63,906 nt of DNA from Candidatus Omnitrophota bacterium. Lineage in GTDB: Bacteria; Omnitrophota; Omnitrophia; JAHJGZ01. Shown one piece after another: positions 1 to 47,620 of this stretch; the stretch's first letter is position 1, and each line of letters begins with the position of its first letter. The translations under genes were made by a program, and so were the position numbers. The notes below the pieces were generated by a model, which was not told where the DNA came from, made no database searches, and saw only the letters and a list, made by a program, of their open reading frames with translations. Location: contig JAHJGZ010000007.1 of NCBI GenBank assembly GCA_018823795.1, positions 1 through 63,906 of the forward strand, written 5' to 3'.

Positions 1-109
1 CAACAATAGCTCCCTCATTATGTTGGCTGAAGCGTTTCCGTAAATCACTCGTAAAACCGGTATAAAAACGATTATCTTTTTTACTTCGTAATACGTATAT
101 ATAATACAT
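1..109 (-). CDS. GIY-YIG nuclease family protein (5' part; runs off left edge)
   Basis: Not in the ORF track. Manual translation from ATG at 109 gives MYYIYVLRSKKDNRFYTGFTSDLRKRFSQHNEGAIV, matching the YxYxL...YxG.T.DL..R..QHN pattern of small GIY-YIG proteins. Confidence 0.85.
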   Translation of the reverse strand, partial: MYYIYVLRSKKDNRFYTGFTSDLRKRFSQHNEGAIV

Positions 110-115
110 AGTGTA

Positions 116-320
116 TCTCTAACGGGGCTGGCTTCGCACTCAATTTACGGAACGTACGTGACGTAAATTGTAGGCCGTTAGGCCGTCTGCGCCTGCCTGC
201 CTGCCGGCAGGAATTAACCCCCCACCAATTATTTCAAATCATTCACATACCCCTCACATAATTGGTGTGGGGGTAAGTTCCGATATACGACTTAGCTTCA
301 TTACTCTCGCTAAGTCGTAT
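116..320. repeat. Cluster of short palindromes/REP-like hairpins
   Basis: TCTCTAACGGGG (116-127); CAATTTACG..CGTAAATTG (141-170); CCTGCCTGCCTGCCGGCAGG (192-211); ACCCCCCACCAAT..ATTGGTGTGGGGGT (217-274); ATACGACTTAGC..GCTAAGTCGTAT (285-320). Confidence 0.75.
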
Positions 321-4498: not shown

Positions 4499-4571
4499 GA
4501 GTCGTTTGCATTGATTTAATCTTTCCTTTTTATCGAAGGCGTCCTTGACATTGAAAAAATGCCAAGTGTCT

Positions 4572-4825
4572 TTTGGGTCTCCTGACTTACGGATCATTTT
4601 ACTAATCGTACCTTCCCGGAATGAGCAAGTAAAAAGGAAAAAAGATAAAGGATAAAACAAATACAGCCTTTATTTGTTTTTCCTTTTACCTTTATCCTTT
4701 ATCCTTGTCTCCCCCAGTGGCCATTACGACGTTCATCCCCGTTCACAGTGGCGCAACCGCGTGGGATTTTCACCCAACTTCCCCGTATATCAAAAATCAT
4801 AAGTGGCGGAAATTATACCTCTTTT
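4572..4825 (-). ncRNA. Cobalamin (AdoCbl) riboswitch containing an ~90-nt heptamer-repeat hairpin insertion
   Basis: Minus strand has GGGAA-GTTGGGTGAAAATCCCAC-GCGGTTGCGCCACTGTG...GCCACTG...GGGAAGG...AGTCAGGAGACC; lies upstream of btuFCD. Ends are approximate. Confidence 0.85.
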
Positions 4826-29272: not shown

Positions 29273-30222
29273 AAAACCTCTTTATATAAAGTACTCCCGT
29301 CAGCAAATGGATCTTTTCGTGCTTTCCGGATACTTTCATCAACCTTATGTTTAATACACTCTTCGATTGAGAGTATTTCTTCTTCGGTATGTCCCGTTTT
29401 CTTTAATTTCTTCCGCTGTAAAAGTACAGGGTCTTTCTTCTGCCACTTTTCATATTCAGCTCTTGAACGATAGCCTGCATGGTAATCTTCATGAACACCG
29501 ACATGTTCGAGGTATCGATAACATTGCATATGGAGGAAAAATGGTCGAGGATTATTTTGAATATCTTTAATAGCTTTCGTTGCTATGGTATAAATTTCTT
29601 CCACATCCGTTGAGGCGGTGGTAACCGTCTCACAGCGGAACTGCTTCATAACCTCCACTATTGAATCAAATCCATATCGTTTTGAAGATGGATTATGAAC
29701 TGCATAGCCATTATCTTCACATACAAAGAGAATAGGAAGCTTCATAAGGCATGCTCCATTAACACTCTCCCAAAATGCGCCTTCATCAACCGCCCCATCA
29801 CCAAAAAATGCAGCAACTAACTTACCATTTTTAACACGCACATTAGCAAATGCAGCACCAACAGCAACAGGAATAATACTTGCGACAATTGCTGAGGTTC
29901 CCATAACGCCATGTTCCGGGGCGCACAAATGCATAGACCCACCTTTGCCGTGGAGTAATGCGGTTCCCTTGCCGTATATTTCGGCAAAAAAATCATCGGT
30001 ATTCTGCGTCTTCGCTAAATATAAGGCATGAGAACGATACGTGCCAAAAACCTGGTCCTTACTGTTTAACGCATGGCACATACCAACCGCAATTGCCTCT
30101 TGCCCCATCGACATATGCATGGGGGTCTTCATGTCATCTTCATGATAGCACTCAATAATTTTCTCTTCACTGCGTCTGATGAGATACAATTTTTTATACA
30201 GTTCAATATTTAATTTTGACAT
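29269..30222 (-). CDS. TPP-dependent dehydrogenase E1 alpha-like subunit
   Basis: H.S.GQEA, GKGGSMH, FFGDGA and YRYLEH motifs. Start set at MSKLNI. Confidence 0.88.
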   Translation of the reverse strand: MSKLNIELYKKLYLIRRSEEKIIECYHEDDMKTPMHMSMGQEAIAVGMCHALNSKDQVFGTYRSHALYLAKTQNTDDFFAEIYGKGTALLHGKGGSMHLCAPEHGVMGTSAIVASIIPVAVGAAFANVRVKNGKLVAAFFGDGAVDEGAFWESVNGACLMKLPILFVCEDNGYAVHNPSSKRYGFDSIVEVMKQFRCETVTTASTDVEEIYTIATKAIKDIQNNPRPFFLHMQCYRYLEHVGVHEDYHAGYRSRAEYEKWQKKDPVLLQRKKLKKTGHTEEEILSIEECIKHKVDESIRKARKDPFADGSTLYKEVL

Positions 30223-30263
30223 ACAATACACATTTCCTTTATCAGTATTGTTTTTTTTATCTC

Positions 30264-31256
30264 TTACCGTACAACGACCGCAGCCTTCCAAGGAAACAGT
30301 TTGAGTTGCTCGCGCCAATAATTAAGCAAATCTTCTAACGTTTGCTGAGGCAAAATCTCCGGTTCCCATCCGGTAATTTCCTTAAACTTTTCAATACAGG
30401 GAATTTGAAGAGTCACATCTGAAGGACGCAGCAACTTTTCATCGACAACAACGTTACACTTGACCCGTGCAAATGAGAGTAGAATATCCAATGCTTTTTG
30501 GATGGTCATGGTATGACTGCCGCCAATATTGTAACACTCTCCCGGCACACCATGCTGTATGAGTAACCAATATGCTTTCACCGCATCACGAACATCACAA
30601 ATAGTACGCACCGATTTTAGATTTCCTACAGAGATACACGGTTCCTTAAGCCCTAATTCAGCAGCTGCAATTTGATTTGCAAAATAAGATAACGCAAAAA
30701 CATCTCCTCGCCGGGGCCCGGTATGAGTAAACATTCGTGTTCGAATAGTCTTCATACGATACGAAAGCCAATACTGGAGCGCTACCATATCTTCACCAAC
30801 TTTACTAACACCATATGGCGACGCTGGCCTGAGGGGGCAGTCCTCTTTAATCGGCACATCTTCTTCCCTTACTTGCCCGTATACTTCTGATGATGAACAA
30901 ATATGTATACGAGGGTTAAGCTTTAGAATTCGAAGAGCTTCCAACAGGTTAGCTGTTCCAATAACATTTGTCCACAATGTTTGAAAAGGTACGTTAAAGC
31001 TTGCTACGACATAACTTTGAGCTGCCAGATGAAAGATAATATCCGGCTTAATAGTTTTCAATTCGTGTATTAAAGAACCGAGGTCGCAGATATCTGCATT
31101 AAAAAGCATTATTTTTTTATATATATTGGCAAGATTTTCCCGCGAACTGCGCCATCGGCACAATCCATAAATATCATGTTTTTCATTGAGTTGGATAATA
31201 TATTCTGCTAAATGGCTTCCTACAAAACCAGTGATTCCTGTTATCAAAATACGCAT
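30264..31256 (-). CDS. gmd: GDP-mannose 4,6-dehydratase-like
   Basis: GITGFVG, HLAAQSYV, SSSEVYG, SPYGVSK and GNL..R motifs. Confidence 0.8.
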   Translation of the reverse strand: MRILITGITGFVGSHLAEYIIQLNEKHDIYGLCRWRSSRENLANIYKKIMLFNADICDLGSLIHELKTIKPDIIFHLAAQSYVVASFNVPFQTLWTNVIGTANLLEALRILKLNPRIHICSSSEVYGQVREEDVPIKEDCPLRPASPYGVSKVGEDMVALQYWLSYRMKTIRTRMFTHTGPRRGDVFALSYFANQIAAAELGLKEPCISVGNLKSVRTICDVRDAVKAYWLLIQHGVPGECYNIGGSHTMTIQKALDILLSFARVKCNVVVDEKLLRPSDVTLQIPCIEKFKEITGWEPEILPQQTLEDLLNYWREQLKLFPWKAAVVVR

Positions 31257-31331
31257 AACTTCTTTCTCCCCTTTTAATTATATTAAACAGTCGATTCTCT
31301 TTGAGTTATAAATGATATTCTAAGCCTTGCT

Positions 31332-31359
31332 ATTATACAAAACACACGTATCTTATCAA
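31332..31359 (-). promoter_or_regulatory. Putative sigma70 promoter of sugar cluster
   Basis: TTGATA-16 nt-TATAAT. Confidence 0.5.
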
Positions 31360-31426
31360 GAAATAATATAGAATGCTCGCAACAGTTGCTTTCAGAACAT
31401 ATTATGATGTTTTAGGATAAAACTGA

Positions 31427-33487
31427 TTATTTGACTTCACTGAAGGACGGTGAGCCTGTTTGACCATAGCTGAGAGCTCCTATTTTCTCCCTCTCTTTTT
31501 CTCCCCTTTCAATCTGCCGGAGCTGTTCATAACAATAGGCAAGATTACTGCGGGCAACGCATACGTACGGATCAACAGATAAGACTTTTTGATAAAAATG
31601 AGCTGCTTCCTCAAAAAGGTAATTAAGCCGATAGACAGATGCTAAGCGAAATAATGCCTTCGTATCTGAAGGATTTGTCTTGATTCGCTCTACATACATT
31701 TCAATAACATCCTTTTGGCTGCTATGCTGATACAGAAAATCGGCAAAATATCGCGCAAGAGAGCTAAACGTAGGCTTTAACGACAATGCCTTTCGTATGT
31801 TTTCCTCAACGAGAACATAATCATTCTTTGCTATATAGACATGAGCTAAAAAGAAATAAAAAATGTGACAATCAGGAAATAAATCAATACCAAGGTGACA
31901 CACATTACGCAATTTTTCAAATTCATATACCCGGCTGTAAATAATAGCAAGGTTAATATATGAATTAGGCTTTAGTGCAATGTGTCCCCATTTTGATTCG
32001 AGTATTGCTATTGCTTGCGTAAGGAGATGGGCGGCGGCATCCAAATGGCCCTTCTGTGCATATTGAATGGCCAAATCATTGCGAAATTCACTGCTGTACG
32101 GAACGTGCTCCAATACTTTTTGATTGTAATCTATTGCATTCGTCCAGACAATATTGTAATACATAGTTAAAAAAGAAAAAAGAAGCACAACACTAATAAA
32201 AAACCATACGCGTATATTTTGCACAATTTTTTTTAATGAATCCTTTGTAACAACCGTATCAGAATAAAAGAAAAGGCGACCGATAACGATACAAAACCCC
32301 ACTAACGGGATATGCAAAAATTGTTTGCCAACAAAAAATGTATATGGCGCGATTTGTCGCCATAACGGGATAACATTAGAGGCAGGAAAATATGTAATAA
32401 GAAACCAGCCAATGCCAAAAAAGATCACCTTATCACGCCGCCAACTCAATCGCATAACACTCAAAAGGATAATTAAAAAAAACAAGGACATCCAAAACTC
32501 TTTTCCAAACGGAACGGTTACGAGCGGTATATAACGCCAATAATAATAGACAGGAAAAGGGAAAATTATCGTTTTGATCTGGGAAATAAGGATCGTGACA
32601 ACCGTAAGCATTCTCAGATAAAAATAGGGAATACAAAAAGCACTCTTTACCATGTCTCCCATTCCAACGCTTACAGCGTTTCGTCGTATAATAAGATAGA
32701 GAATGAAAATAAAAAAAAATGAGCTATACGTACCCGCCTGTCTGAACCACTGATGATACAACCTTTTCTTTTGGTTCGGATGAGAATGGTTACTTGCATC
32801 CGGATTATCCGGTGGAAAACAAAGGTCATATACTATGAGGAGAGCAGGAATGACGATCCCTATTTCTTTAGAAAGCAGTGCACAGAAAAAAGAACTTAAC
32901 GATACAAGAATATAAATGTTTTTTCGAACAATAGAATTCGCACCCCTGAAGTACGCATATGAAACAACAGATAAAAGTATAAAAACAAGACAGAGCAAAT
33001 CGGTCCGACCTGACAATGAGGCAATATGCGGTGACTGAAGTGGATGAGTAAGAAAAATAGTTGCCGCAATAAATGAAAAAAGAACCCGATTGAAAATACA
33101 CTGTAGAAAAAGAAAGAAAAGAATCACACTGACCACATGGAGCAGGATATTCGTGAGATGGTACCCAAACGGAACAAGGTGCCAGATGGTGTAATCAAGC
33201 AAATAACTCATAATGATCAAGGGGCGGTAATACAGGTGCTTAAAAAAAACGTAATCCCGCATACCGCCACTATCAAAAAAAGGGAGGGAAAAGAGTCGGG
33301 CACTATTGGCGAGTGAAAAATTATAAATATTAGAGTTCTCGGTAATAAGGGAAAAATCGTCTCCGATAAATTCACCGTCAAGACTATTATAATAGAGCAT
33401 CCCGCCAAGAAGAATAAAAAAAATTATACAATAAAAGAGCTGACGGTTCCGGGAAATTTTTAACGGTGAAAAGATGTGAGCAAACAT
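31427..33487 (-). CDS. TMTC-like GT-C glycosyltransferase with TPRs
   Basis: FIGDD, YYRP, GYHLTNILLH, HP..SGR and LSKE motifs; C-terminal TPRs. Confidence 0.8.
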   Translation of the reverse strand: MFAHIFSPLKISRNRQLFYCIIFFILLGGMLYYNSLDGEFIGDDFSLITENSNIYNFSLANSARLFSLPFFDSGGMRDYVFFKHLYYRPLIIMSYLLDYTIWHLVPFGYHLTNILLHVVSVILFFLFLQCIFNRVLFSFIAATIFLTHPLQSPHIASLSGRTDLLCLVFILLSVVSYAYFRGANSIVRKNIYILVSLSSFFCALLSKEIGIVIPALLIVYDLCFPPDNPDASNHSHPNQKKRLYHQWFRQAGTYSSFFFIFILYLIIRRNAVSVGMGDMVKSAFCIPYFYLRMLTVVTILISQIKTIIFPFPVYYYWRYIPLVTVPFGKEFWMSLFFLIILLSVMRLSWRRDKVIFFGIGWFLITYFPASNVIPLWRQIAPYTFFVGKQFLHIPLVGFCIVIGRLFFYSDTVVTKDSLKKIVQNIRVWFFISVVLLFSFLTMYYNIVWTNAIDYNQKVLEHVPYSSEFRNDLAIQYAQKGHLDAAAHLLTQAIAILESKWGHIALKPNSYINLAIIYSRVYEFEKLRNVCHLGIDLFPDCHIFYFFLAHVYIAKNDYVLVEENIRKALSLKPTFSSLARYFADFLYQHSSQKDVIEMYVERIKTNPSDTKALFRLASVYRLNYLFEEAAHFYQKVLSVDPYVCVARSNLAYCYEQLRQIERGEKEREKIGALSYGQTGSPSFSEVK

Positions 33488-33501
33488 AGAAACTTCAAGC
33501 C

Positions 33502-34461
33502 TTATCCTTTGAACAAGAGTACCAATTCATGAAATATAGTTTTATCAATCTTTCCTTCAAATTCTTTATGCATAACTTCTATTGAATGAAAGGTATCAGC
33601 CGCTTCTTTATAGGGCCGGTTAGTATTGAGTGCATCAAAAATATCGGCAATACAAACAATTTTCGCATAGAGCGGAATGGCACGCTCTTTCAACCCATCA
33701 GGATAGCCAGAACCATCCAGCTTTTCATGATGATAGTTAATCACCTGCAAGATATCACTATGAAGATTTTGATATTTCTTGATGAGACCGACACCCCGTT
33801 GCGGATGTTCTTTAATGATCTCCCATTCTTCATCGGTCAGCTTGCCTTTTTTCAGTAAAATTTCAGGTGAAATAGTTTTTTTACCGATATCATGTAAAAG
33901 TGCACCGGTTCCTAAATTGGCAAGTTTATAGGGTGAGTGTATATCCATGCGCCGAGCCAGTGAAAGAGCATAAATACACACATTGATCGAATGAGTATAC
34001 GTATAATAGGTATGCGGCACGAAGCTAATAATATTGAAAAAAAAGTTTCGCTCTTTGAGGATGTACTGGACGGTATTTTTGATAAAGTCCCGTACTCGAT
34101 CAATCATGGCACCGTTCAGTGTACCTTCCATGACCTCCTCCATAAGATCACGTGCTGCCTGGTAAACAATACGAGCCTTCTCGTCCGAACGCAATTCAAC
34201 ATTTTCAACAATCTGATGTAAATGCGTCTCAATATACTGTTGATACTGCCTCCGTTCATGCGCCGTAATAAAGAGCAAAGAAATACCATTTTCGATAAGC
34301 AGGTGACGTCCTTTTTTACTAAATCCGGTTTGGTGTGGATGATACAAAACATAGGAATTCTGAATGCGGTCATACAGATAAAGATTAAAATTGAGAACGG
34401 TATTGGTAATAAGCGATTCTAAAAAGATAGGGATGAACTGCTCTTGTGCCTGTTCATTCAT
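33502..34461 (-). CDS. HD-GYP cyclic-di-GMP phosphodiesterase
   Basis: LLHDIGK, HHEKLDGSGYP and DIFDAL..RPYK motifs. Confidence 0.92.
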   Translation of the reverse strand: MNEQAQEQFIPIFLESLITNTVLNFNLYLYDRIQNSYVLYHPHQTGFSKKGRHLLIENGISLLFITAHERRQYQQYIETHLHQIVENVELRSDEKARIVYQAARDLMEEVMEGTLNGAMIDRVRDFIKNTVQYILKERNFFFNIISFVPHTYYTYTHSINVCIYALSLARRMDIHSPYKLANLGTGALLHDIGKKTISPEILLKKGKLTDEEWEIIKEHPQRGVGLIKKYQNLHSDILQVINYHHEKLDGSGYPDGLKERAIPLYAKIVCIADIFDALNTNRPYKEAADTFHSIEVMHKEFEGKIDKTIFHELVLLFKG

Positions 34462-34556
34462 GGGACAATACGATACGTTGGTGTAGTATACATGACAAAT
34501 TTATTTATAACGATCTATTATACGCAACAATATGCTTTGCCGTAACCTTTGCATAC

Positions 34557-34594
34557 AAAACTGGCTAGTAACTTAAAAGATACTAGCCAGTTTT
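34557..34594 (-). terminator. Intrinsic terminator after major pilin
   Basis: AAAACTGGCTAGTA..TACTAGCCAGTTTT hairpin. Confidence 0.75.
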
Positions 34595-34631
34595 TATTCT
34601 TCTATAAAAAATTTAAATTTCTAATTAACTA

Positions 34632-35099
34632 CTAAAATTGATTTTCAGCATTAGTGCTTGTATTAGCGTAAAAAATACCTGTTGTTGAGCAATATGCCCA
34701 CCCTGCACTTGTTCCAGAAATAGAACGACTATTTGCATTGGGAACATCTACGGCAACGATAAAGTTTCCGACTGCAGCCGCTGCAAGCGGATTTGCAGGC
34801 ATTTTAGAATCTAATGGACAGGTATCAAGTGAAACGCCTGACGCTGTTGACGATGCTGCAAGTTCCGCATATAACGGCCAATAATTACCATCTTTTATTG
34901 CACTTGTACCCGTTATTAGATTATTAGATTTTGCAATAGACAGTGCTGAACGTACGTTACCAGAAGTCCCTTTTACAGAAGCTAATGATGCTTCCTCCCG
35001 GATGTCTGCAAATTTTGGTATAGCAACAGCAGCTAATATACCAATGATGATAAGCACAATGACCAACTCAATTAAAGTAAAACCTTTCTTTCCTCTCAT
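34632..35099 (-). CDS. Major type IV pilin (MshA/PilA-like)
   Basis: Short leader MRGKKG|FTLIELVIV..AVAIPKF; AGGAGG RBS; own promoter and terminator. Confidence 0.88.
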   Translation of the reverse strand: MRGKKGFTLIELVIVLIIIGILAAVAIPKFADIREEASLASVKGTSGNVRSALSIAKSNNLITGTSAIKDGNYWPLYAELAASSTASGVSLDTCPLDSKMPANPLAAAAVGNFIVAVDVPNANSRSISGTSAGWAYCSTTGIFYANTSTNAENQF

Positions 35100-35169
35100 A
35101 GTCTCCTCCTTTGATTGTTTGATTGTTCTTTTTTTTCTATTATTATAATTTTTTGATCTCTATAGGTAA

Positions 35170-35198
35170 AGTATAATGCAATCTTACAAAAATTACAA
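35170..35198 (-). promoter_or_regulatory. Putative sigma70 promoter of major pilin
   Basis: TTGTAA-17 nt-TATACT. Confidence 0.5.
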
Positions 35199-35304
35199 CT
35201 AATAAAATGTCTTTGTTGAATATTTAAAATATCGCGTTAAAAATCGCACAATGTTCACACCCACAGCTTTAAAGTACTTAACGGCATATTGTTCAATAAA
35301 CTTT

Positions 35305-35409
35305 ACCCCGTGAGAGTGTGATCCTAAAAAGGATATCTATACTAAAAAAATATTCATGATGTGACGTCATGTAATAAATCTATTTAAAAAAGTCGCTCTC
35401 TAACGGGGT
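35305..35409 (+). mobile_element. MITE-like unit (105 bp), intergenic, inverted relative to pilin-leader copies
   Basis: ACCCCGTGAGAG...CTCTAACGGGGT ends; interior homologous to 39113-39221; TTTAC at both junctions. Confidence 0.75.
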
Positions 35410-36975
35410 TTACTTATAATAGGCAATAACGAGGCGCGGCCTGACATCGGGTGTAAGAGGATTATTGTCTGGATCTGGGTTGCTTTCCTGGGATTTAAAC
35501 GCATAGTAATCATCCACGCTAGCACTTTCATCGGTTATTCGGACCAAGAAACCATAATTGCTCCAATCGCCGATCACCCACTTTTGTACCGCTACAGTAA
35601 CATCAAAGCTGAGATACGCTGGTGGCGACGAAGCAAAATATTGTTCGCCTTGTTTATCACTATAATCATCATCCACATCAGTCCACGCATGGTTAGTTGA
35701 ACTTTCATTCCAGTTACCACCGGTAAACCGATGGACCTCAACGGTATCAGACCCAGCTATATGATCAGTATCGTTAAATAATATTAATTCAGCAAAGACC
35801 ACTTTTGAACTACTCGTCAAACCAGGAGGCTTCCCTGCTCCTGTTAAATCGAATTTCAATAAAGCCCGACATGATGTTACGCCAGACCCGAGATCTGCTC
35901 TGCCAACAATAAGATATTCATACGGGTCTCCACCTCCCACTGGGCTTTCTGGGTCATAGGGATCAAGATAATTATAATCGTTACCGGGAAAATCAACCAT
36001 TTTATCCTGATGTACTTCTGCAGTCGTATCGCCTGTTTCCCGCAAACCATACGCTGGTGCAATAACCGGGTAGACAATATTGAATTTTTGGCGTTCGGAT
36101 GTTGGAGAAACAAAAATATAGGTTGACAATACATTGTGGAGCGCACCACCCTCTTCTCCCTGCCAGTAAGGGTCAAACCGATTGGTATTCCATGGTGTTA
36201 ATGGTGTTATCTGTAACCGATGATATCCGTAGGGGACATTATCAGCAGTAAAATATTTGGTAGGACCACCGCCTGCGTCAGTCATAGCCTGCGTCTGATA
36301 GATCAAGTCGGTCTGCGCAATACTCGGATCAAAGACAGGTGGATGATACAGACAAACCGTTAAATCAGTATCATCAAGAATAGTATGTCCCCACTGAGGA
36401 TCTAATACCCCGAATGTCGTAGTATTAACAAAATAATCATCAGTATTACCGGTAACCGTTGCATTACCAGAAACGCTCGCATCAACAATACGAACCGCAA
36501 TATCACAACCGGTACGATACGCTTCTGTTATCGAAATAGACCTGTCAGCATCATCACCCGTACCAGCGGCAAGCTTATCCCGCCCAAGACTTGTAATCGT
36601 ATAATTGCCTCCACCACTAGCTAAACTAATCGTACCATACGCATCTTCCTCAGCCAATGAACTACCATCCGACCTTTTAAAGGCATCCACATCCGCCATA
36701 AGGGCGTTGATCTCTGTAGTCCCGGGAAACGTCGTTGCCTCTGAAAAATTACCGGTGTTACTACCCGCATCATTGTGACACAAATATCGATGTCCTATGA
36801 GGCGGGCTTCGACACCGCGCAGCCGCTGCCATGATAATTGTCCACGCTCCGCTGAAACAACCTCATTTAATAAGTACATTGACGTAGACAACACTATCGT
36901 AGATAAAACTATCAAAACGATGATACTTACTAAAACAAATCCTTGTTTTTTTATGCTCCTATGACTTTTATTCAT
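35410..36975 (-). CDS. Minor pilin/adhesin with C-terminal DNRLRE-like domain
   Basis: KKQG|FVLV hydrophobic N-terminus; C-terminal RALLKFDL..FDVT.AVQ.W..NYGFL..PRLVIAY. Confidence 0.65.
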   Translation of the reverse strand: MNKSHRSIKKQGFVLVSIIVLIVLSTIVLSTSMYLLNEVVSAERGQLSWQRLRGVEARLIGHRYLCHNDAGSNTGNFSEATTFPGTTEINALMADVDAFKRSDGSSLAEEDAYGTISLASGGGNYTITSLGRDKLAAGTGDDADRSISITEAYRTGCDIAVRIVDASVSGNATVTGNTDDYFVNTTTFGVLDPQWGHTILDDTDLTVCLYHPPVFDPSIAQTDLIYQTQAMTDAGGGPTKYFTADNVPYGYHRLQITPLTPWNTNRFDPYWQGEEGGALHNVLSTYIFVSPTSERQKFNIVYPVIAPAYGLRETGDTTAEVHQDKMVDFPGNDYNYLDPYDPESPVGGGDPYEYLIVGRADLGSGVTSCRALLKFDLTGAGKPPGLTSSSKVVFAELILFNDTDHIAGSDTVEVHRFTGGNWNESSTNHAWTDVDDDYSDKQGEQYFASSPPAYLSFDVTVAVQKWVIGDWSNYGFLVRITDESASVDDYYAFKSQESNPDPDNNPLTPDVRPRLVIAYYK

Positions 36976-37096
36976 ATCGTATTTATCTCATTATCCCCCT
37001 TGAGAAAGCATCTTTTCGTACAGAACATAATGACTCCCACTTTTATTAATAAGTTATATGGTACAAGAAATAACACTCGCCCTTAGAACTTAAATT

Positions 37097-38350
37097 TCAA
37101 TTGAGTATTACATCATAGCTTCCCGTTTCATCCGGCGACAACACGCCCGGTAGCCGCACTTCAAAGCACTGGGTCACATTCAATCCACGGGGATATACCG
37201 TAATCACTTTTTGGATATATGTTTCGCCATTCCCCGCAAGGTCATCAAGACCGGCTAAATCATCTTGATGGCAAAATTCGCCCTGCTGCGCCGAACCTTT
37301 TGGCGTTGGTACAACCGATACTAAATAAAATCCTGCGGGGAGATTAATAACCCTCACCGCACCTGAATCATACGTTATATCGGTACCCGCCGGCCCTCCG
37401 GCAGCTCCACCACCTGCATTTGATACAAAATAGTAGTGAGCGTTAGAACCAAAAGTAGTTATGTCTACCCGATATATCTGATGAAAATAGTAAGCAGTCT
37501 CTGCTGCATGATTTAATCGGAGTAATGTTCCGTTGGCATCTTTGATAAAGATTGCTATTTTATTTCTCGTATAGGCATAGGTACTAGTATCCATTAGATA
37601 GGTAATATTCTGCTCAAAACGGTCGGCACCCCCACCATCGGTTAATGAGCCAGTAGGGGGTATACTGTAATACCCGTCACTTCCGTAACTTTCAATTTTA
37701 CGTTCATAATCACTACCAAACTCATTCCATCGAAACCGATATTCCTTTCCCCATTCATCCATTAAAAAATCGTGTATACCTGCCTCGGTAATCCCCTTCG
37801 GTTCTGCCGTTAATTCATACATTACAAGCGCAACTCCATCCCGATCATCACCTGCCGGCCAACCATGATGCAGCCCAAAATAGCCAAAACCTGCCTGATG
37901 GCCAGTCTGAACTTCTTCAGGCTCTCCTACCATTGCATGAGCTACTTTTTCCATCTACGTCATCGTCTTTTTGTATCTATTCGCATCAATCAAGTCATGC
38001 GATAATGACGCACCCGCAAGAAGAACCACGGTCATAATGACAAATCCTATAAGTAATTCTAAGAGGCTGAACCCCGTTAGAGAACGATCTTTAAATAAAC
38101 ATTTTTTACCTACAATAATATTATGAATATTTTTTTTAGTGGAGACACTCTTTTGGCAAGGGGTATACTCTAACGGGGTGAACCCGGTTAGAGAACGATC
38201 TTTAAAGAAAGATTTTGTAAATCTCATAAGACTATAACTATTTTTTTTAGTATATACCCTTTTTTTACTAGGGACGCACTCTAACGGGGTGAACCCTATT
38301 ACAGCGCGTTTTTTAATAACAAGATTTTGTAAAGTATCTGTTTTCATCAT
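37097..38350 (-). pseudogene. Prepilin-like gene interrupted by in-frame TAG (37955-37957)
   Basis: ORFs 37955-38500 and 37097-37954 are in the same frame and abut. GFSLLEL...YKKTMT*MEKV aligns with paralog YKATVKEMKQ. Likely start at MMKTDT. Confidence 0.75.
38071..38290 (-). mobile_element. Two tandem 109-bp MITE-like units (38071-38179, 38182-38290) in a prepilin leader
   Basis: Terminal inverted repeats ACCCCGTTAGAG/CTCTAACGGGGT; 111-bp period equals 37 codons. Confidence 0.8.
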
Positions 38351-38357
38351 GAACTCA

Positions 38358-39266
38358 CTATATCTCAAGAGCATTAAGAGCGCCCGGTAAACGCATAACA
38401 ACAACATGAACCCGACTTGCTCCTTTTGGATAGACAACAATATCTTGAGAAAAAGTAGTATTCCCTTCATTAAGACAATTTTTCCAATTAGTACCGCCAC
38501 TGCCCGAATTATCCTGAACCGTAACGACCACGGGATGTGTTCCTACATCAACACCCGTTACACTAAAGATACCCGCACTATATGCTGCAGCCCCACCAGA
38601 CAACGTTACCGAGGTTATCTGGTAATTCGATTGAGTATCATTCCCCCGCAAAAGGTTTCCTTTTATATCGTATACCATAATCCTTACAATGTTGTTTGTA
38701 TATAACAACTTATTAATGGTAAGGACGATATCTTCATCGAAAGGATCACCGCTCGCTGCACCATCAAGGCCATCCCGCCCACGACTGGTCACCGTAATCA
38801 GGCCAGCTGCATCAGCATACACATAATCCCTTCCCCATGCATCTTTATCATAGTCAGTATTTGCACGAAAATAACTTGAAATATTACTTAATGCAGCCGG
38901 CCAAGAACCATTATCTCCCACATAGCCAAAATCTACCCGCTGTTTTCCTTCAACCGCATTCTCATCGCCGACCAAAGCTTTCTTTATCTGTTTCATTTCT
39001 TTTACTGTTGCTTTATACTTGGATACTTCAACACTATCCCCCATACCCCGGATACCGACCGCACCAACAATACCAATAATAACAAGGACTAAAATAAATT
39101 CTATAAGGGTGAACCCCGTTAGAGAACGACCTTTTAATAAATATTTCTTACCGACAATAACATCGTGAATATCTTTTTTAGCATAGATATTCTTTTGAGG
39201 GAGATTACACTCTAACGGGGTGAACCCCGTTAAGGAAAAAACTTTTTTCTTCATCAGCTGTTTCAT
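38358..39266 (-). CDS. Prepilin/GspG-like pseudopilin with repeat-expanded leader
   Basis: SLTG|FTLIEFILV, DFGY and DAWGRDY motifs. Confidence 0.8.
   Translation of the reverse strand: MKQLMKKKVFSLTGFTPLECNLPQKNIYAKKDIHDVIVGKKYLLKGRSLTGFTLIEFILVLVIIGIVGAVGIRGMGDSVEVSKYKATVKEMKQIKKALVGDENAVEGKQRVDFGYVGDNGSWPAALSNISSYFRANTDYDKDAWGRDYVYADAAGLITVTSRGRDGLDGAASGDPFDEDIVLTINKLLYTNNIVRIMVYDIKGNLLRGNDTQSNYQITSVTLSGGAAAYSAGIFSVTGVDVGTHPVVVTVQDNSGSGGTNWKNCLNEGNTTFSQDIVVYPKGASRVHVVVMRLPGALNALEI
39113..39235 (-). mobile_element. 109-bp MITE-like unit (39113-39221) plus adjacent lone end
   Basis: Same terminal inverted repeats; junction palindrome TCTAACGGGGTGAACCCCGTTA. Confidence 0.8.
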
Positions 39267-39314
39267 GGATCTTTTTATATTTTTTATTGTTTATAAATTG
39301 CGTGTATCTTTTTT

Positions 39315-40442
39315 TTATAATTCCTTAACATCGACAACACCGGGCAACCGAAATTCAATATAATTGGGAACTTTTGGACTTTTTGGATATATGGGAACCC
39401 ATTGAGAAAGAGAACTATTCCCCCGCATTAAATCATCTCTATGATCTATTTTTCCTGCTGAATTCTCACCCGGCCACGACGAATAAGTGGTAGGATACAC
39501 TACTATGCGATAAAAACCGCAGGGAATAAAATATTCTGTCGCTCCTTGAACATTCGCAAATATACCATGAGAATAAAATAATTCATACCCGCTCGCTCCC
39601 TCAGTCTCAAGGATAGTATTACCATCAACATCGATAACATCCACCTGGTAAATCTGATGATCATAATTGGCACCTGCATAACCGCGAAGGATTGTCCCAT
39701 TCACATCCATGACGTTCATAAGCAAAAGATTTTCTGTATAGAGATCCTGGCGTATGATAATGTGAAAGTCTCCATAAAAAATCGTTGTCGTCCCACCCGC
39801 TGCACCATCTCTGCCTAAACATTTAATCTCAACTGCATCATAATCGGTTCCTCCTAACGTAATAGTTTCTGTGGTACTATACACAAAATCATTTCCCCAG
39901 GCATCCTGTTTATAGCTGTCAGCCACATTGGCAGCACCGATTGTTTCTTTTTGAGGTGCAGGAGGAAGGAAATCTGCTAGCCCAGAATTTGCGGGGGTGA
40001 CCGCATCATGCCCATCAGTAGGAACCTCATCACCATTTTCTGGATTAGGAAATACTCCATACCGCTCCACAAAGCCGAAATCGACCCGCGTGCCTAAATT
40101 ATTAAGCCGCTCATCACCGATAAGAGCCCGTCGTATGGTAACCATGGTATGGCAACTCTCGACATATTTTTGCGCATCAATGGCATACACCGCGTAGCGA
40201 GACCCCGTAATAGCAATAATCGAAAGAATAATGAGAACAAGAAGAACTTCAAGAAGGGTAAACCCCATTAGAGAACGATTTTTAAATATACATTTTTTAC
40301 CTATAATAATATCATGAATGTTTTTTTTAGTAGGGATACTTTCTTGGCCAGGGACATACTCTAACGGGGTAAACCCCGTTAGAGAACGATTTTTAAAGAA
40401 ATATTTTGTACATCTCATACTAGTATGACCACTTTTTAGCAT
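39315..40442 (-). CDS. Prepilin/GspG-like pseudopilin with repeat-expanded leader
   Basis: SLMG|FTLLEVLLV, RVDFGF and DAWGNDF motifs; start codon lies within a repeat unit. Confidence 0.8.
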   Translation of the reverse strand: MLKSGHTSMRCTKYFFKNRSLTGFTPLEYVPGQESIPTKKNIHDIIIGKKCIFKNRSLMGFTLLEVLLVLIILSIIAITGSRYAVYAIDAQKYVESCHTMVTIRRALIGDERLNNLGTRVDFGFVERYGVFPNPENGDEVPTDGHDAVTPANSGLADFLPPAPQKETIGAANVADSYKQDAWGNDFVYSTTETITLGGTDYDAVEIKCLGRDGAAGGTTTIFYGDFHIIIRQDLYTENLLLMNVMDVNGTILRGYAGANYDHQIYQVDVIDVDGNTILETEGASGYELFYSHGIFANVQGATEYFIPCGFYRIVVYPTTYSSWPGENSAGKIDHRDDLMRGNSSLSQWVPIYPKSPKVPNYIEFRLPGVVDVKEL

Positions 40443-40479
40443 TCACATTTTTGCTTTTCGTATCACACTCTAACGGGGT
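40262..40479 (-). mobile_element. Two tandem MITE-like units (40262-40370, 40373-40479)
   Basis: Same terminal inverted repeats; 109 and 107 bp. Confidence 0.8.
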
Positions 40480-40618
40480 AAAGTTTTGCAAAGATTGTAT
40501 GCTTTGTAAGCGATTTCTTCGCATGTTTTATTTAGACAATTAAAAAAATATCCACTCTGAAACATCTTTATATAATACTTCAAACAAAAAACATCGCAAC
40601 GCACTCTTCTTTATGAGA

Positions 40619-41158
40619 CTAGCCACCGGTTCCTTCATACTGAAATGATACTTCAATATCATCAGTACCCCCGGTACTGGTAATGGTAATTGCACCATCA
40701 GTCGTTGCATACCCATAGTCAACTCCCCATGCATCTTCTAAAGAATCAGCGGTGCCATTACTATCATTATCTTTGTCATCAACATACGGACCATACCATC
40801 CAGTGCCTGAAACGGGATCTATCGCACCGTCCGCAGGAGTATTGACCAGTTCACTTAATCCGGTCGGAACTCGATACATGTGCGGTATAAACCCATGAAA
40901 CTGTGTATCAACATTGCCAGCAATAGCAGAAATAAGTTCCGCCATTTCTGCCTTTGTAGCCTGTATCCGCGCGGTTTCTTGTAAATCCCCAAATTTAGGG
41001 ATGAGCACACTCGCTATGATGCCGATTATTACCATAACCATAACACACTCGATAAGGGTAAACCCGGTTAAAGAACGATCTTTAAAGGAATGTTTTTGTG
41101 ATATGATCGATTGGTTTTTTCCGGCACGTGGTACCATGGTGTGTGTTCTCTTCTGCAT
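40619..41158 (-). CDS. GspG-like prepilin (degenerate unit end in leader at ~41062-41090)
   Basis: FKDRSLTG|FTLIECV, W.GPY and DAWG motifs. Confidence 0.8.
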   Translation of the reverse strand: MQKRTHTMVPRAGKNQSIISQKHSFKDRSLTGFTLIECVMVMVIIGIIASVLIPKFGDLQETARIQATKAEMAELISAIAGNVDTQFHGFIPHMYRVPTGLSELVNTPADGAIDPVSGTGWYGPYVDDKDNDSNGTADSLEDAWGVDYGYATTDGAITITSTGGTDDIEVSFQYEGTGG

Positions 41159-41203
41159 GAGGACTGTTTAAGAAATAAATCTATCGAATTAACGTTTTGT
41201 TAT

Positions 41204-41770
41204 TCACGAATTCTTTATATTGACGACAATATTACCACCACCACCGCCGGTACTCGTAATCGTTGCAGCACCCGCAGCATAAACATACGCATTGCCCCAT
41301 GCATCGTACAATATATCAATATTGCCATCTCGTTCTCGTACATCAATATACGGACCGTTCCATCCTGTTTGGGTCAGTGGATCATAATCGGCTTGAGCAT
41401 CTTGAGTATATAATTCTACCAATCCGGGAGCCCCATCCACCGGCAATCTTCCCATATCATCATAATATCCTCTAAACCCTTGTGAAGCATCGCCAATAAT
41501 TGCTCGCACGAGTTCCATCATCTCCTTTTCGGTTGCACTACGCCGTGCATTGTTAGTAATCTCTCCCATTTTAGGAATAGCAACCGCTGAGACAAGTGCT
41601 AAGATGACAATTACCAGAATTAACTCTGTTAAAGAAAATCCTGCGGTGTTGTCTACTGATGCTTTATGTCTTTGTAGAAATTTATTCAAAAGACTCTTTT
41701 TGAGAGGTGTAGTGACATTATTAGAAATTCTTTTTTTACTATTCATAAATATCTTTTTGAAGACGCACAC
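41204..41770 (-). CDS. GspG-like prepilin
   Basis: G|FSLTELILV..AIPK, WNGPY and DAWGNAY motifs; start uncertain. Confidence 0.82.
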   Translation of the reverse strand: MCVFKKIFMNSKKRISNNVTTPLKKSLLNKFLQRHKASVDNTAGFSLTELILVIVILALVSAVAIPKMGEITNNARRSATEKEMMELVRAIIGDASQGFRGYYDDMGRLPVDGAPGLVELYTQDAQADYDPLTQTGWNGPYIDVRERDGNIDILYDAWGNAYVYAAGAATITSTGGGGGNIVVNIKNS

Positions 41771-42297
41771 TACTCGCCCACCTTGACAACAATATCATCC
41801 GCCGTACTAGAAGTTTTATCAGGCCCATCGCTTGTAATGGTTGACGGAGAGCCAACAAAATCAGGAACATAGGGCTGGTCCCATGCATCGTACAGGATGT
41901 CTAATTCAAGCTCACCACCATCACCTAAAATATCCCTCTTGCGCTGGTCAATATACGGGCCATTCCAACCTGTTTTGGTAAAAGGGTTATAGGGAGATTC
42001 ACCACTACTGGAATATAAATTTGATAACTGTGTTGGTAATGATCCTATATCATCAAGATATCCCTGAAAACCGGTTTCAGGATCACCAATGATCGCCCGC
42101 ACGAGCTCCATCATCTCCTTTTCTGTCGCACTAATTCGTGCATTCTCAGCAATTTCCCCCATTTTAGGAATAGCAACTGCTGCAATAATCGCCAAGATGA
42201 CAATGACAAGGATTAATTCCGTTAAAGAAAAGCCTCTGGAATGAAGTCTCATATCCCGCTCGACGTCTACATGCCCTCTTCTTTTTTTTGCTTTCAT
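41770..42297 (-). CDS. GspG-like prepilin
   Basis: G|FSLTELILV, WNGPY, DAW and SDGPD...DDI motifs. Confidence 0.85.
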   Translation of the reverse strand: MKAKKRRGHVDVERDMRLHSRGFSLTELILVIVILAIIAAVAIPKMGEIAENARISATEKEMMELVRAIIGDPETGFQGYLDDIGSLPTQLSNLYSSSGESPYNPFTKTGWNGPYIDQRKRDILGDGGELELDILYDAWDQPYVPDFVGSPSTITSDGPDKTSSTADDIVVKVGE

Positions 42298-42346
42298 AGC
42301 CTCACCCTTACCGTTTATACATTTTAATAATAACTTTTGTATTATA

Positions 42347-43567
42347 TTAATGAGCGGTCTGTGAACCTGACATACTCCATAATGGTAAAAATACTCCGAG
42401 TGCTAAAACAACGACAATGCCAGCGATAAATAACAAGAGGAGTGGTTCGAGCAACAATGTTAAATTATGAATAGTATAATCCGATTCTCGCTCATAGTAA
42501 TCAGCTACCATTTCCATCAACTCATCAATTCTTCCTGCCTCCTCGCCGGAGGCAACCATCTGTATAATCATGTCAGGAAAAACAGTTTCTTCGCTCATAG
42601 ACGCTGCTATTGATTTTCCTTCACGCACTTTTTCTTTTACATTGTTCATTGCCCTAGTAAGAACAACATTGTCGGCTGTTTGCCCTGCTAAATTCAACGT
42701 TTCTACGATAGGAACACCGCTTTTGACCAGCGTTCCTATCGTACGAGCAAAACGACACATAAAAATTTTAGTGAACAAAGGGCCAAAAATATATACCTTC
42801 AAAAGAAAGCGATGCCATAACAATTTTCCTACGGGAGTACGGGTAATAAATCGAAAGGTACAAATAAATACGACAATACCAATGATGACATAATACCAAT
42901 AATGTTGCAAAAAATAACTTGATCGCATTAAAATCTTTGTAAAAATAGGAATTTCAACATTAAATCCTTCGAAGAGTGTCATAAAACGAGGGAGTACAAA
43001 AAGACCAATGGCAAGGATCGCTATAATAATGACCGCAATAACGATGACCGGATAACTCATAGCCTGTTTAATCTTCGCTGTTACTTCCTGATCCTTCTCT
43101 ATCGACTCAGCAAGCCGGCTTAAAACTTCAGGCAACGAACCAGATGCCTCACCGGCTTTGATAGTACTACAATATATTTTATTAAATGCTTTAGGATACT
43201 TTGTAAGCGTAGCGGAAAAACTTGAGCCACTTTCAATATCGCGTCGAATGTCCTCAAGCATTCCTCTCATTGTTTTATTTTTAGTTGAATTTGATAAAGA
43301 CTTGATCCCCTTTACTAACGGCAACCCTGCGATACACAACGCATACATTTGTCGCGTGAAAAGCATCACATCTTTTATACTGACTCCTCCTTTAAGAAAA
43401 AACAATTTATCAGCAAAAGAAAAGCGGGTACTTTGTTCTTTCAATACCAGTAATACCATTCCCATTTCTTTAAACCGCTGCGCAGCATTTTGTGGGGAAT
43501 CAGCACGTATAACTCCTTCATTAAGTTTTCCTTTTTTATCACGTGCTTTATACTGATACGTTTTCAT
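42347..43567 (-). CDS. pilC: Type II secretion F/PilC platform protein
   Basis: AGEASGSL, AMSYP, SGVPI, GEEAG and LLEP motifs. Confidence 0.9.
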   Translation of the reverse strand: MKTYQYKARDKKGKLNEGVIRADSPQNAAQRFKEMGMVLLVLKEQSTRFSFADKLFFLKGGVSIKDVMLFTRQMYALCIAGLPLVKGIKSLSNSTKNKTMRGMLEDIRRDIESGSSFSATLTKYPKAFNKIYCSTIKAGEASGSLPEVLSRLAESIEKDQEVTAKIKQAMSYPVIVIAVIIIAILAIGLFVLPRFMTLFEGFNVEIPIFTKILMRSSYFLQHYWYYVIIGIVVFICTFRFITRTPVGKLLWHRFLLKVYIFGPLFTKIFMCRFARTIGTLVKSGVPIVETLNLAGQTADNVVLTRAMNNVKEKVREGKSIAASMSEETVFPDMIIQMVASGEEAGRIDELMEMVADYYERESDYTIHNLTLLLEPLLLLFIAGIVVVLALGVFLPLWSMSGSQTAH

Positions 43568-43622
43568 ATATGGTTACTCCTCATGTTATTATGTAGTGTC
43601 ACGGCTGTATGTTCCATTATAT

Positions 43623-45296
43623 CTAAAGATATTTCGTGGCCTTTATAACTTCGTCGGGTGTTGTGATACCCGCTTTAATTTTGTCAACGCCATCATCACG
43701 CAGTGATAGCATCCCCTCTTTTAAAGCAATTTTACGTATTTCAAGATGAGTTTCCTTATGGGTAATCGCTTCTTGCAAGCGTGCTGATACTTCCATCAGT
43801 TCAAAAATTGCTATGCGACCATGATATCCTGTATTGCGACACTGCTGACATCCTTTTCCTCTATAATATTTCATGTCTGTATGAAAAAGACGTAATTCTT
43901 CAATAATTTCCTTTGACGGAGTATATTCTTCCTTACAATCGGGACAAATAACGCGTACCAAACGTTGCGCTATTGCTCCTACTAATGTTGAAGCAACAAG
44001 AAAATGTTCGACCCCCATCTCAGTAAATCGGCTTATGCATGCGGGTGCGTCATTCGTATGCAATGTCGTAAAAACCAAATGTCCCGTCATGCCTGCTTGT
44101 ACAGCAATATTAGCTGTCTCCAAATCACGAATTTCTCCTACCAAAATGATATCAGGATCTTGTCGCATGACACAACGCAATCCGTGCGGAAAGGTAAAAC
44201 CAGTTCTCGTATTTATTTGTGACTGTCGAATTAACGGCATTTGATACTCGACGGGGTCTTCCAAGGTCATAATATTTCTATCAACCGAATTAATTCGTCC
44301 GAGCGCTGCATAAAGGGTGGTTGTCTTTCCACTCCCCGTGGGACCGCTTGTCAAAATAATACCATAGGGTCTTTTGATCCACACACTAAATTGCTCGAGA
44401 CCTTTTTTCGAAAGGCCTAAATCCTCAAGCCCCATTAAGACACTCCCTTTTTTTAGGATCCTCATGACAATATTTTCTCCATGAACAGTAGGAAAGGTCG
44501 ACAGACGAATATCAACCGGCTGATTATCAATTTTCATGTCAATTCTTCCATCCTGCGGCATTCGTCGTTCAGCAATATCCAAGTTAGCAAGAATCTTTAA
44601 ACGAGAAATAATAGCCGGTTGCAGTCGTTTCGCCGGCTGTGCAACCTCTTGTAATGCGCCATCAATACGATACCGAACACGCAATATCTCTTCCTCAGGA
44701 TTAATATGGATATCACTTGCTCTATCTCGTATCGCATGTGAAATAAATAAATTTACGAGTTTAACAATCGGCTCATCACTTGCAGCTTCAATTAATTCTG
44801 CTGGCGCATCCAGCTTGTTTGCCGCCTCTTCATCCTCTATTGTTTCGATGACATCACTGACCGAGTCTTTTACACCGTATGCTTTGTTAATGGCATCGTC
44901 AATAGCTCTGCGCAATGCTAAAATGGGTTCAACACCATAACCTGTTTTTACTCTAATTTCATCCATTGCATGAACGTCAGAAGGATTAGCAGTTGCCATC
45001 ATAAGGGTGTTTTTAATCTTAAAGAGGGGGAAAACTTGATACTTCTGGCAAAGATTCATTGTCATAAGTTCGACAACTTCTGCATCCGGAGTATAAAAAT
45101 GCAGGTTAACGCCGACAATGCCGCTATATTTCGTAAGGATATCAAGAAGAACATCCTCTTCAACAATTTGTTGTTCATACAAAATATCGACTAATGACTT
45201 CTCGGTTGAAACCATTTGTTCAGCTTTTTCAAGCTTGTCAGTAGCAACTAAATTTTGTTCGAGGAGAGAATCCTTCAGAAAATTATTTATATCCAT
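43623..45296 (-). CDS. pilB: GspE/PilB assembly ATPase
   Basis: ASDIH, GPTGSGKTTT, EDPVE, RQDPDIILVGEIRD and HTN motifs; CxxC pairs. Confidence 0.92.
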   Translation of the reverse strand: MDINNFLKDSLLEQNLVATDKLEKAEQMVSTEKSLVDILYEQQIVEEDVLLDILTKYSGIVGVNLHFYTPDAEVVELMTMNLCQKYQVFPLFKIKNTLMMATANPSDVHAMDEIRVKTGYGVEPILALRRAIDDAINKAYGVKDSVSDVIETIEDEEAANKLDAPAELIEAASDEPIVKLVNLFISHAIRDRASDIHINPEEEILRVRYRIDGALQEVAQPAKRLQPAIISRLKILANLDIAERRMPQDGRIDMKIDNQPVDIRLSTFPTVHGENIVMRILKKGSVLMGLEDLGLSKKGLEQFSVWIKRPYGIILTSGPTGSGKTTTLYAALGRINSVDRNIMTLEDPVEYQMPLIRQSQINTRTGFTFPHGLRCVMRQDPDIILVGEIRDLETANIAVQAGMTGHLVFTTLHTNDAPACISRFTEMGVEHFLVASTLVGAIAQRLVRVICPDCKEEYTPSKEIIEELRLFHTDMKYYRGKGCQQCRNTGYHGRIAIFELMEVSARLQEAITHKETHLEIRKIALKEGMLSLRDDGVDKIKAGITTPDEVIKATKYL

Positions 45297-45447
45297 AATA
45301 GTTCCCTTATTGTCTTACTCACTGCCCTGTGCCCTTATAGATAAAAAATATAATAGATACAATAGTCGTATTATCCGTTTAACTTTAAAAGTGCTCGTTC
45401 TTCTATTACCATTGACGTGTAGCCAATACCTCTTTAAGGACATGCCG

Positions 45448-45834
45448 TTAATTCTGATGTTCTGCAACCATTCGCTCGATTTTCTCAATAACCGCTTCGG
45501 TATCTAACGGTTTCGTCATGAAGCTATTAAATCCCATTCGTTGCGCTTCATCTTGTGTTTCTTGGCGGCCAAGTTGTGTTATTGCTATCATATAAATATC
45601 TTTATACCGCTCATCAAACTTTAAAAATCGTGCAACGCGGAATCCGTCAAGTTTTGAAAGTAATATATCTAATAAAATAATAAGCGGTTTTTCTTTTCGA
45701 GCAATCATTAATCCGTCCTGTCCGTTGCTCGCTTCTAATATTTCATAGCCGCGAAGAATGAGAGGAATTTTTAAACTTTCCCGAATATTAATATCGTCAT
45801 CTACTATTAATATTTTTCTGTTTTTACCGACCAT
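45448..45834 (-). CDS. Single-domain response regulator
   Basis: ILIVDD, LLDI and TKP motifs. Confidence 0.9.
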   Translation of the reverse strand: MVGKNRKILIVDDDINIRESLKIPLILRGYEILEASNGQDGLMIARKEKPLIILLDILLSKLDGFRVARFLKFDERYKDIYMIAITQLGRQETQDEAQRMGFNSFMTKPLDTEAVIEKIERMVAEHQN

Positions 45835-45921
45835 GTCCGTCCTTTTAAATTTTTTATACAGCGCTATCGCGTATACATAACAATTATCTTATATTACAGT
45901 CTATTATAAAGCGTTTTACAC

Positions 45922-46425: not shown

Positions 46426-46482
46426 GAATGTGAATACGCACTTAATTACTTACAGAATAATAATAGTATCTTAACCCTACCC

Positions 46483-47445: not shown

Positions 47446-47470
47446 ACAATGATTTCCTTTTTAATGAGTG

Positions 47471-47618: not shown

Positions 47619-47620
47619 CT

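Follow-up and report, generated by a model that had tools for sequence, protein, structure and literature searches.

A ~277-bp, very probably mobile element with a GIY-YIG nuclease as its only gene in Candidatus Omnitrophota and other bacterial phyla

As far as the examined sections of Chenal et al. (2025, PMC11893778) extend, the closest published system to the element described here is that of the Ssn nucleases (cd10448) and their NTS/SRM repeats. Ssn proteins are single-domain GIY-YIG proteins, which cut single-stranded DNA beside NTS/SRM hairpin repeats; these repeats flank the ssn gene and are dispersed in hundreds of copies, and the arrangement NTS-ssnA-NTS is likened by the authors to an insertion sequence, to IS200/IS605 and to REP/RAYT (PMC11893778). 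Since that comparison is drawn in the Discussion of the paper, the concept of the original prediction for the present locus, a REP/RAYT-like element with a GIY-YIG enzyme, was already in print. GIY-YIG ORFs were also reported in non-intron insertions of CPR rRNA genes, the ends of which are not described in the accessible part of that source (PMC11270868), a GIY-YIG protein is merely listed among predicted transfers in the part of PMC12455944 at hand, and the examined passages of PMC1564403 contain nothing on repeats. In the full-text literature, with most subscription journals outside the scope, no account was found that assigns terminal inverted repeats and target duplications to a bacterial GIY-YIG element, or that places such an element in pilin leaders.

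The characteristic signature of DDE transposition is terminal inverted repeats combined with a target duplication of constant length. RAYT proteins are HUH Y1 enzymes, which are usually single-copy and make no target duplications, and homing endonucleases of the I-TevI type combine a catalytic domain with a DNA-binding extension, reside in an intron or phage gene and spread without target duplication. Rickettsia palindromic elements are short palindromic units tolerated in frame in protein-coding genes, for which no enzyme is known. Characterised GIY-YIG enzymes leave 3' overhangs or nicks, and we know of no GIY-YIG enzyme that joins DNA.

The window, i.e. the whole 63,906-nucleotide stretch of DNA analysed (C94:1-63906), was taken from contig JAHJGZ010000007.1 of a Candidatus Omnitrophota bacterium (GCA_018823795.1) and starts at contig base 1. 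The 12-mer TCTCTAACGGGG lies on the plus strand at 116-127 (minus-strand reading CCCCGTTAGAGA), and bases 110-115 form a 6-nt spacer between it and a minus-strand ATG at 109-107. This start codon opens the minus-strand ORF 2-109 (MYYIYVLRSKKDNRFYTGFTSDLRKRFSQHNEGAIV; 36 codons, open at its 3' side), which matched Pfam GIY-YIG PF01541 with an E-value of 7.1e-10 at profile positions 1-34 and was aligned with the full copies C130, C178 and C73. The anticipated terminal repeat 6 nt before the ATG of a GIY-YIG ORF was thereby borne out. As the window begins at the first base of C94, the gene is truncated by assembly and not by biology, and the window copy could be aligned with complete genomic copies from its terminal repeat to its own last base. 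Comparison with C130 extended the repeat to a perfect 14 nt: the left terminal inverted repeat CCCCGTTAGAGATA occupies 114-127 on the minus strand, including the 12-mer, and is separated from the ATG by a 4-nt spacer (110-113, minus strand, by sequence reading). Positions 27-39 (minus strand) hold the left arm of an internal inverted repeat (GGAAACGCTTCAG, coding RKRF), the partner of which, CTGAAGCGTTTCC, sits 3 nt from the right terminal repeat in the complete copies. The flank GCGAAGCCAG at 128-137 (minus strand) is not a target duplication; the same end of C130, C178 and C73 carries it too. Window positions 1-127 are best read as the left end of one copy of a ~277-bp mobile element, consisting of 14-nt repeat, 4-nt spacer and 36 codons. 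At ≤1 mismatch, TCTCTAACGGGG was matched 12 times in the window against 0.13 expected, a number reached by 0 of 100 shuffles; 55 exact copies were counted in the 250-contig, 3.19-Mb genome, and none of the reversed control word.

Inverted copies of TCTCTAACGGGG were paired across the genome, which gave size classes of ~105 bp, ~135 bp and 263-388 bp. The last of these comprises the GIY-YIG genes: six complete paralogous copies, each with the gene between inverted repeats, were located at C29:9663-9932, C60:3268-3530, C73:3773-4160, C89:3398-3679, C130:18935-19212 and C178:10765-11041, and two further GIY-YIG copies are cut by contig ends, the window copy on C94 and one on C180. Joining C94 to C180, a contig that ends 43 nt past a repeat with the last GIY-YIG codons, was rejected, because ~30 codons would be missing between them. 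All six complete copies have the ATG a few bases inside one repeat and an ORF that runs through the other, ending ..NRLKRFLSLTG; its C-terminal LSLTG is coded by the right repeat, and the triplet directly beyond the element serves as stop codon. The element, bounded by inverted repeats of 13-14 nt (YCCCGTTAGAGAY...RTCTCTAACGGGR), lacks a stop codon and in many cases a start codon as well. Most local gene copies are broken (TAG at codon 2 in C130, a frameshift in C178, an interruption in C73, decay in C60 and C29), the sole intact one being that of C89 with 86 aa; its GAAAT end variant was also found in several gene-less copies. C73 holds a nested 108-bp unit, which is missing from every other copy. 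The local gene-bearing copies are placed as GGGG/TAAAGGAGG-N5-ATG, immediately before a ribosome-binding site, and as the flanks GCGAAGCCAG and TAAAGGAGG are common to four of them, these may have spread inside a larger repeated block.

Outside this genome, the predicted order of repeat, GIY-YIG gene and inverted repeat was found again in three intact ~280-bp copies from other genera (L014, L015 and L016, the latter from G039) and in 75 of 80 foreign loci; in the paralogues and foreign loci the inverted repeat lies, as proposed, at the 3' end of the gene, a position which in the window is lost with the contig end inside the gene. The 80 loci were fetched from Patescibacteria, Omnitrophota, Planctomycetota, Elusimicrobiota, Thermodesulfobacteriota, Nitrospirota and one archaeal MAG, and the 75 showed a clean YCCCGTTAGAG...CTCTAACGGGR pair, 273-314 bp apart; these counts overstate independent events, as one and the same insertion is in some cases represented by loci from related MAGs (e.g. 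L096/L097, L030/L031, L086/L088). More than 2390 database relatives of the C89 protein were recorded, mostly of 86 aa, and the best 120 of them, with ~66-77% identity, were named from Omnitrophota, Patescibacteria and Planctomycetota. Elements of this kind are present in many bacterial phyla and, as far as found, have apparently not yet been described as a transposon. In a set of 41 genomes (the source genome and 40 relatives, which are not independent samples), the motif was present in 20 and a full-length homologue (residues 1-86, E ≤ 1e-28) in seven, namely G000, G001, G013, G019, G020, G030 and G039. The suspected co-occurrence of motif and gene held among these related genomes: all seven with the full-length gene carry the motif, and none of the 21 motif-less genomes gave a full-length match, three of them showing shorter matches to other GIY-YIG lineages. 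With the same query, no GIY-YIG gene was found in G028 (12 motifs) and G031 (14 motifs).

Intact ORFs encode 86-87 aa and match PF01541 over residues 1-68 (E 3e-13 to 3e-17), with no other domain. The ORF is intact in 75 of 76 elements and open from the first base to the last in 43. Median pN was 0.20 against a median pS of 0.76, and dN/dS was 0.19 in 166 unsaturated pairs; judged from these sequence comparisons, the GIY-YIG protein is under purifying selection, and it is ~65-75% identical across distant phyla. Its best solved-structure relative by sequence is UPF0213 BH0048 (1zg2; E 1.1e-5, residues 2-66 only), one of the UPF0213/bacterial Slx1-like minimal GIY-YIG proteins; the PDB search otherwise returned only a weak Slx1 match. 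The repeat-encoded tail ..KRFLSLTG distinguishes the present protein from UPF0213 and is specific to the element, and no mobile context of BH0048 is known to us. NCBIfam TIGR01453 (group I intron endonuclease) was matched with 31.7 bits, under its cut-off of 56.

The sequences around the elements were categorized according to reading frame. A stop codon stands at the first base after the element in 56 of 76 cases. The element's last A followed by TG rebuilds an ATG in 34 of the 76, mostly with the TCCC...GGGA variant at ATGAA, and in 26 of these 34 an ORF of at least 60 codons then follows. Sixteen of the 76 continue the frame of a host ATG no more than two codons upstream, some of them without an ATG of their own (L037, L090, L095), and five are read in frame into a pilin N-terminus (..FLSLTG/FTLIE). 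As a separate observation, a gene-bearing element and exactly one 4-bp repeat are often followed by another left end (L040, L044, L093, L096/L097, L099, C89:3679-3694).

Perfect terminal repeats of 13-15 nt were present in 69 of 79 elements. A second, inner stem is formed by 10-16 nt that lie 3 nt inward of the right repeat and are exactly complementary to the RKRF-coding segment at ~position 90; it was found (≥10 nt) in 68 of 79 elements, with sequences that differ between lineages. For the covariation alignment, 15 of the 79 sequences were hand-picked for diversity, and on these RNAalifold returned exactly the terminal stem and the inner stem. In the 15 sequences, 97.8% of the cells were paired, compared with 88.5% in shuffles and 32-57% in slid controls, and two-sided changes occurred at 11 pairs, which was reached by 0 of 500 shuffles; 8 of the 13 pairs of the inner stem covary. 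One-sided (G-T) changes are almost absent, which points to a constraint at the DNA rather than the RNA level. A single copy folded as DNA gave z = -2.65.

A second GIY-YIG lineage in the genome has its own ends, ACCCAGCACCCAG, with 14 pairs: two decayed genes (C110:60580-60853 and C215:12199-12471) and 12 gene-less pairs of 44-137 bp (e.g. C130:18751-18875). Another GIY-YIG lineage in the genome has the ends CCCTTGACGTTTTGCCAT, and GAACGAAGACT may be the end of a further one, for which the reversed control was noisy. On these comparisons, protein lineage and end sequence appear tied together. A family with a CCCAGCAC core has been noted in another genome.

Target duplications were scored on 58 local repeat pairs (80-420 bp apart, ≤3 mismatches). 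Perfect 4-bp direct repeats surround 28 of them, with ~0.2 expected by chance, and 30 are without. The duplicated words are TTTA/TAAA and TTCA/TGAA in the ~105-bp class, TCTA, TTAG, TGAG, CTAG and CTCA in the ~135-bp class, and TAAG at the intact gene copy C89. Among 75 foreign pairs, 31 have perfect 4-bp duplications (TGAA 18, TTTA 7, TGAG 4, TAAA 2), 8 have 3 bp and 36 none. Inverted-looking flanks occur at some copies (TTTA..TAAA, TTTA..TGAA), including the nested C73 unit. The 4-bp duplications are real, since the flanks in pilin genes read GGG TTY A, element, TTY ACC, and an uninterrupted gene would have a single TTY A. Public contigs of four runs were screened for empty sites over window positions 30000-49999, where none was bridged by any contig; the joints found there were short-sided and repeat-typical (40387>40454; 39126>40468 with 7 other letters). 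At L014 (G013:C23, 470-870), the start of the host gene downstream (~47 nt; ATGAAACG...AATATGG) stands in diverged form on both sides of the element, besides a TGGA duplication; the element could have arrived there together with foreign flanking sequence.

The gene-less copies fall into two groups. Those of ~135 bp keep both stems, terminal and inner; the inner hairpin, with a loop of 14-19 nt, was found in 12-14 of 50 short pairs, again 3 nt from the right repeat. These copies are clearly to be read as internal-deletion derivatives of the gene-bearing element, an assignment made from sequence; between their 5' part and the first 75 nt of the gene no convincing alignment was found beyond the end repeat and TTACGGAAAC. 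The 105-109-bp units, which the original prediction had taken for derivatives of the gene-bearing element, have in common with it only the 11-nt ends, the 4-bp duplication and the TTYA target. A second stem was absent in six window copies of 105-107 bp, in which the terminal stem stands alone and inner pairs are weak and G-T rich. Without second stem and internal similarity, the descent of these units from the gene-bearing element is not shown; they are plausibly its non-autonomous partners, and it is the ~135-bp class to which the predicted derivation applies.

In the window, a gene-less unit of 103 bp with the same 11-nt ends lies at 35306-35408 on the plus strand, flanked by TTTA on both sides. 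Five units are placed on the minus strand at pilin leaders, and all five end in the same word as the terminal repeat at the window's start, as had been noted before. The prepilin-leader unit at 38072-38178 (107 bp) is in frame (...RSLTG/FSLLELL) with plus-strand flanks TGAA/TGAA, and a tandem second unit at 38183-38289 has one 4-bp repeat in common with it (38178/38183). A second prepilin-leader unit lies at 39114-39220 (..RSLTG/FTLIEF) and a third at 40263-40369 (..RSLMG/FTLLEV), the latter with a tandem unit at 40374-40478 and a single TAAA between the two (40369/40374). The distal unit of each tandem pair contains an in-frame ATG (MRFTKSFFKDRSLTG). One 107-bp unit and its 4-bp repeat add up to 111 bp (37 codons), stop-free in the pilin frame and ending ..RSLTG/F, and three prepilin leaders are affected; the leader could consequently be translated through and then removed by prepilin peptidase. 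Insertion seems to favour the junction between an element end and its 4-bp repeat, a sequence similar to the prepilin ACG GGG TTY ACC. At C178:53779-53888 of the same genome lies a 110-bp unit, open in frame and flanked by duplicated TTCA; after it comes FTVIFGGGEPLL.., which resembles the start of a radical-SAM-type protein. Genes besides those for pilins may also tolerate short units in frame. Unlike Rickettsia palindromic elements, the present units have an enzyme-bearing partner, and their preferred site within coding sequence is a leader removed by the cell.

That the locus belongs to a mobile element whose only gene encodes a GIY-YIG nuclease is, in our view, very likely. We also consider it probable that this nuclease is the element's own mobility enzyme, a claim made with less confidence because the joining step is without precedent for the fold and many copies lack a clean duplication. 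3' overhangs or nicks, as left by the characterised enzymes, would not give a 4-bp duplication, and the integration step would thus be without precedent. In the proposed course of events, the small nuclease would recognise the ends of its element, probably in a folded form (single-stranded or cruciform DNA) of the kind that Ssn nucleases have been shown to act on, and would cut at the repeat boundaries. A break staggered by 4 nt would open the target at T-rich sites (TTYA, TGAA), to be filled and sealed by host repair, and gene-less copies would be moved in trans. Copies would survive where insertion is cheap: on a start codon, rebuilt by the element's last base, directly ahead of a ribosome-binding site, which is the local situation, or at the G/F cleavage codons of prepilins.

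The element shares with insertion sequences and MITEs the terminal inverted repeats, the fixed 4-bp duplication, internal-deletion derivatives, and nested and tandem insertions, and differs from them in that its only ORF is an 86-aa GIY-YIG protein of no known transposase class in a total length of ~277 bp. Given such inverted repeats and duplications of fixed length, the units might be ordinary MITEs moved by a DDE-type transposase that is encoded elsewhere and has the same ends, with the GIY-YIG gene as a passenger or addiction-type cargo. A full insertion sequence could have been lost from the 250-contig MAG, because repeats often fail to assemble, and G028 and G031 hold 12-14 motifs with no gene found. 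Among the 135 end motifs of the genome (≤1 mismatch), 105 of them paired, no pairs 700-6000 bp apart were found other than chance combinations, however, and the only orphan motifs near contig ends were the window copy and C180, both of them GIY-YIG fragments. No DDE, HUH, serine or tyrosine recombinase was found between the ends, where the GIY-YIG ORF stands alone. In the better assembled genomes G020 and G013, all pairs among the matches listed were ~90-130 bp or ~280 bp apart, the only longer pair being the GIY-YIG copy. In 75 of 76 elements across phyla the ORF moreover crosses the right repeat, in many cases also the left, it shows purifying selection, and each GIY-YIG lineage has its own ends, all of which speaks against cargo of a foreign transposase; we regard this explanation as unlikely. 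Equally improbable in our judgement is a domesticated host system of the Ssn type, currently immobile, in which nuclease and repeats serve the cell (e.g. in the control of incoming single-stranded DNA). It draws on Neisseria, where Ssn and hundreds of hairpin repeats modulate transformation and domestication was proposed, according to the examined sections of PMC11893778, and on the protein found here, which is of similar size and likewise consists of a single GIY-YIG domain. Several decaying gene copies per genome, target duplications, nested and tandem insertions, a patchy presence among relatives (7 of 41) and ~70% identity between phyla argue against it, as does the SRM consensus HGTCWYN(0-2)YYVSBRHN(0-5)WNVSBRGN(0-2)RNCYNB, which gave 4 matches in the genome against 6-7 in three shuffles, with none ≤300 nt from 15 GIY-YIG loci.

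GIY-YIG is also the classical fold of homing endonucleases, the sub-threshold TIGR01453 match is a weak pointer in that direction, the prepilin sequence ACG GGG TTY ACC resembles joined element ends, and the diverged host-gene start flanks the L014 element on both sides. A free-standing homing endonuclease gene, copied by double-strand-break repair into homologous sites in pilin leaders and at gene starts, with repeats derived from the target, would account for the locus only if these outweighed unrelated flanking genes, a 4-bp duplication constant in length and variable in sequence, and the spread of gene-less copies as well. The protein has 86 aa and no DNA-binding extension, and its element shows duplications, in both respects unlike the I-TevI type; we hold this reading to be very improbable.

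The reading of a mobile element with its own nuclease can be set beside the Ssn system. Likenesses, as far as the examined sections of PMC11893778 go, are a single-domain GIY-YIG protein of ~90 aa, a gene with its own repeat on either side, many dispersed repeats without a gene, and co-variation of protein and repeat. The present element differs in having its ORF enclosed by long-range terminal inverted repeats that are in part translated, whereas Ssn repeats are local 20-50-nt hairpins beside the gene, and in its target duplications, stop-less ORF, and start-codon and prepilin sites, which those sections do not describe. In the readable supplements of PMC11893778, no names of Omnitrophota, Patescibacteria or Planctomycetes were found. 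The paired protein and end specificities could be useful as sequence-specific DNA tools, as has been argued for Ssn. The predicted likeness to REP/RAYT stands in part: with REP/RAYT and IS200/IS605 the element shares a small enzyme gene, many short palindromic repeats and a likely action on folded single-stranded DNA, and a GIY-YIG analogue had already been published. The enzyme here is GIY-YIG and not HUH Y1, multi-copy and decaying, with duplications, which looks more like an insertion sequence with MITEs.

We see about an even chance that the element represents an undescribed class of prokaryotic DNA transposon with an 86-aa GIY-YIG nuclease as its sole protein. At ~277 bp, it would be among the smallest autonomous elements, making 4-bp duplications, accompanied by gene-less MITE partners and crossing phyla, and its cost would be limited by a start-less and stop-less ORF that takes its start codon from the host and restores it, or turns into a giant, peptidase-removable prepilin leader. 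Were the 86-aa nuclease to move the element, transposition with target duplication would be carried out by an enzyme family not known for it, in a package far smaller than known insertion sequences, and a mechanism and natural history would be provided for nuclease/repeat pairs of the Ssn type. It would also explain common contig breaks and odd 'GIY-YIG-pilin fusion' gene calls in MAGs of Omnitrophota and Patescibacteria, and add start-codon rebuilding and a leader removed by host peptidase as a new way for selfish DNA to reside inside genes.

Just past the element end, the window contains at 141-170 and 218-273 a hairpin with a 9-bp stem (CAATTTACG..CGTAAATTG), a GC-rich palindrome and a 56-bp inverted-repeat unit (CCCCCCACCAATTAT..ATAATTGGTGTGGGGG). 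Modules similar to window 141-273 precede C178, C130 and C73, and gene-bearing copies may therefore sit in clusters of other small repeats. Eight element-bearing loci were searched against Rfam at E ≤ 1, where nothing was matched except for one chance snoRNA-like hit. For the window, Rfam returned a single match above threshold, a cobalamin riboswitch (RF00174; 62.8 bits, E 3.6e-13) at 4554-4815 on the minus strand.
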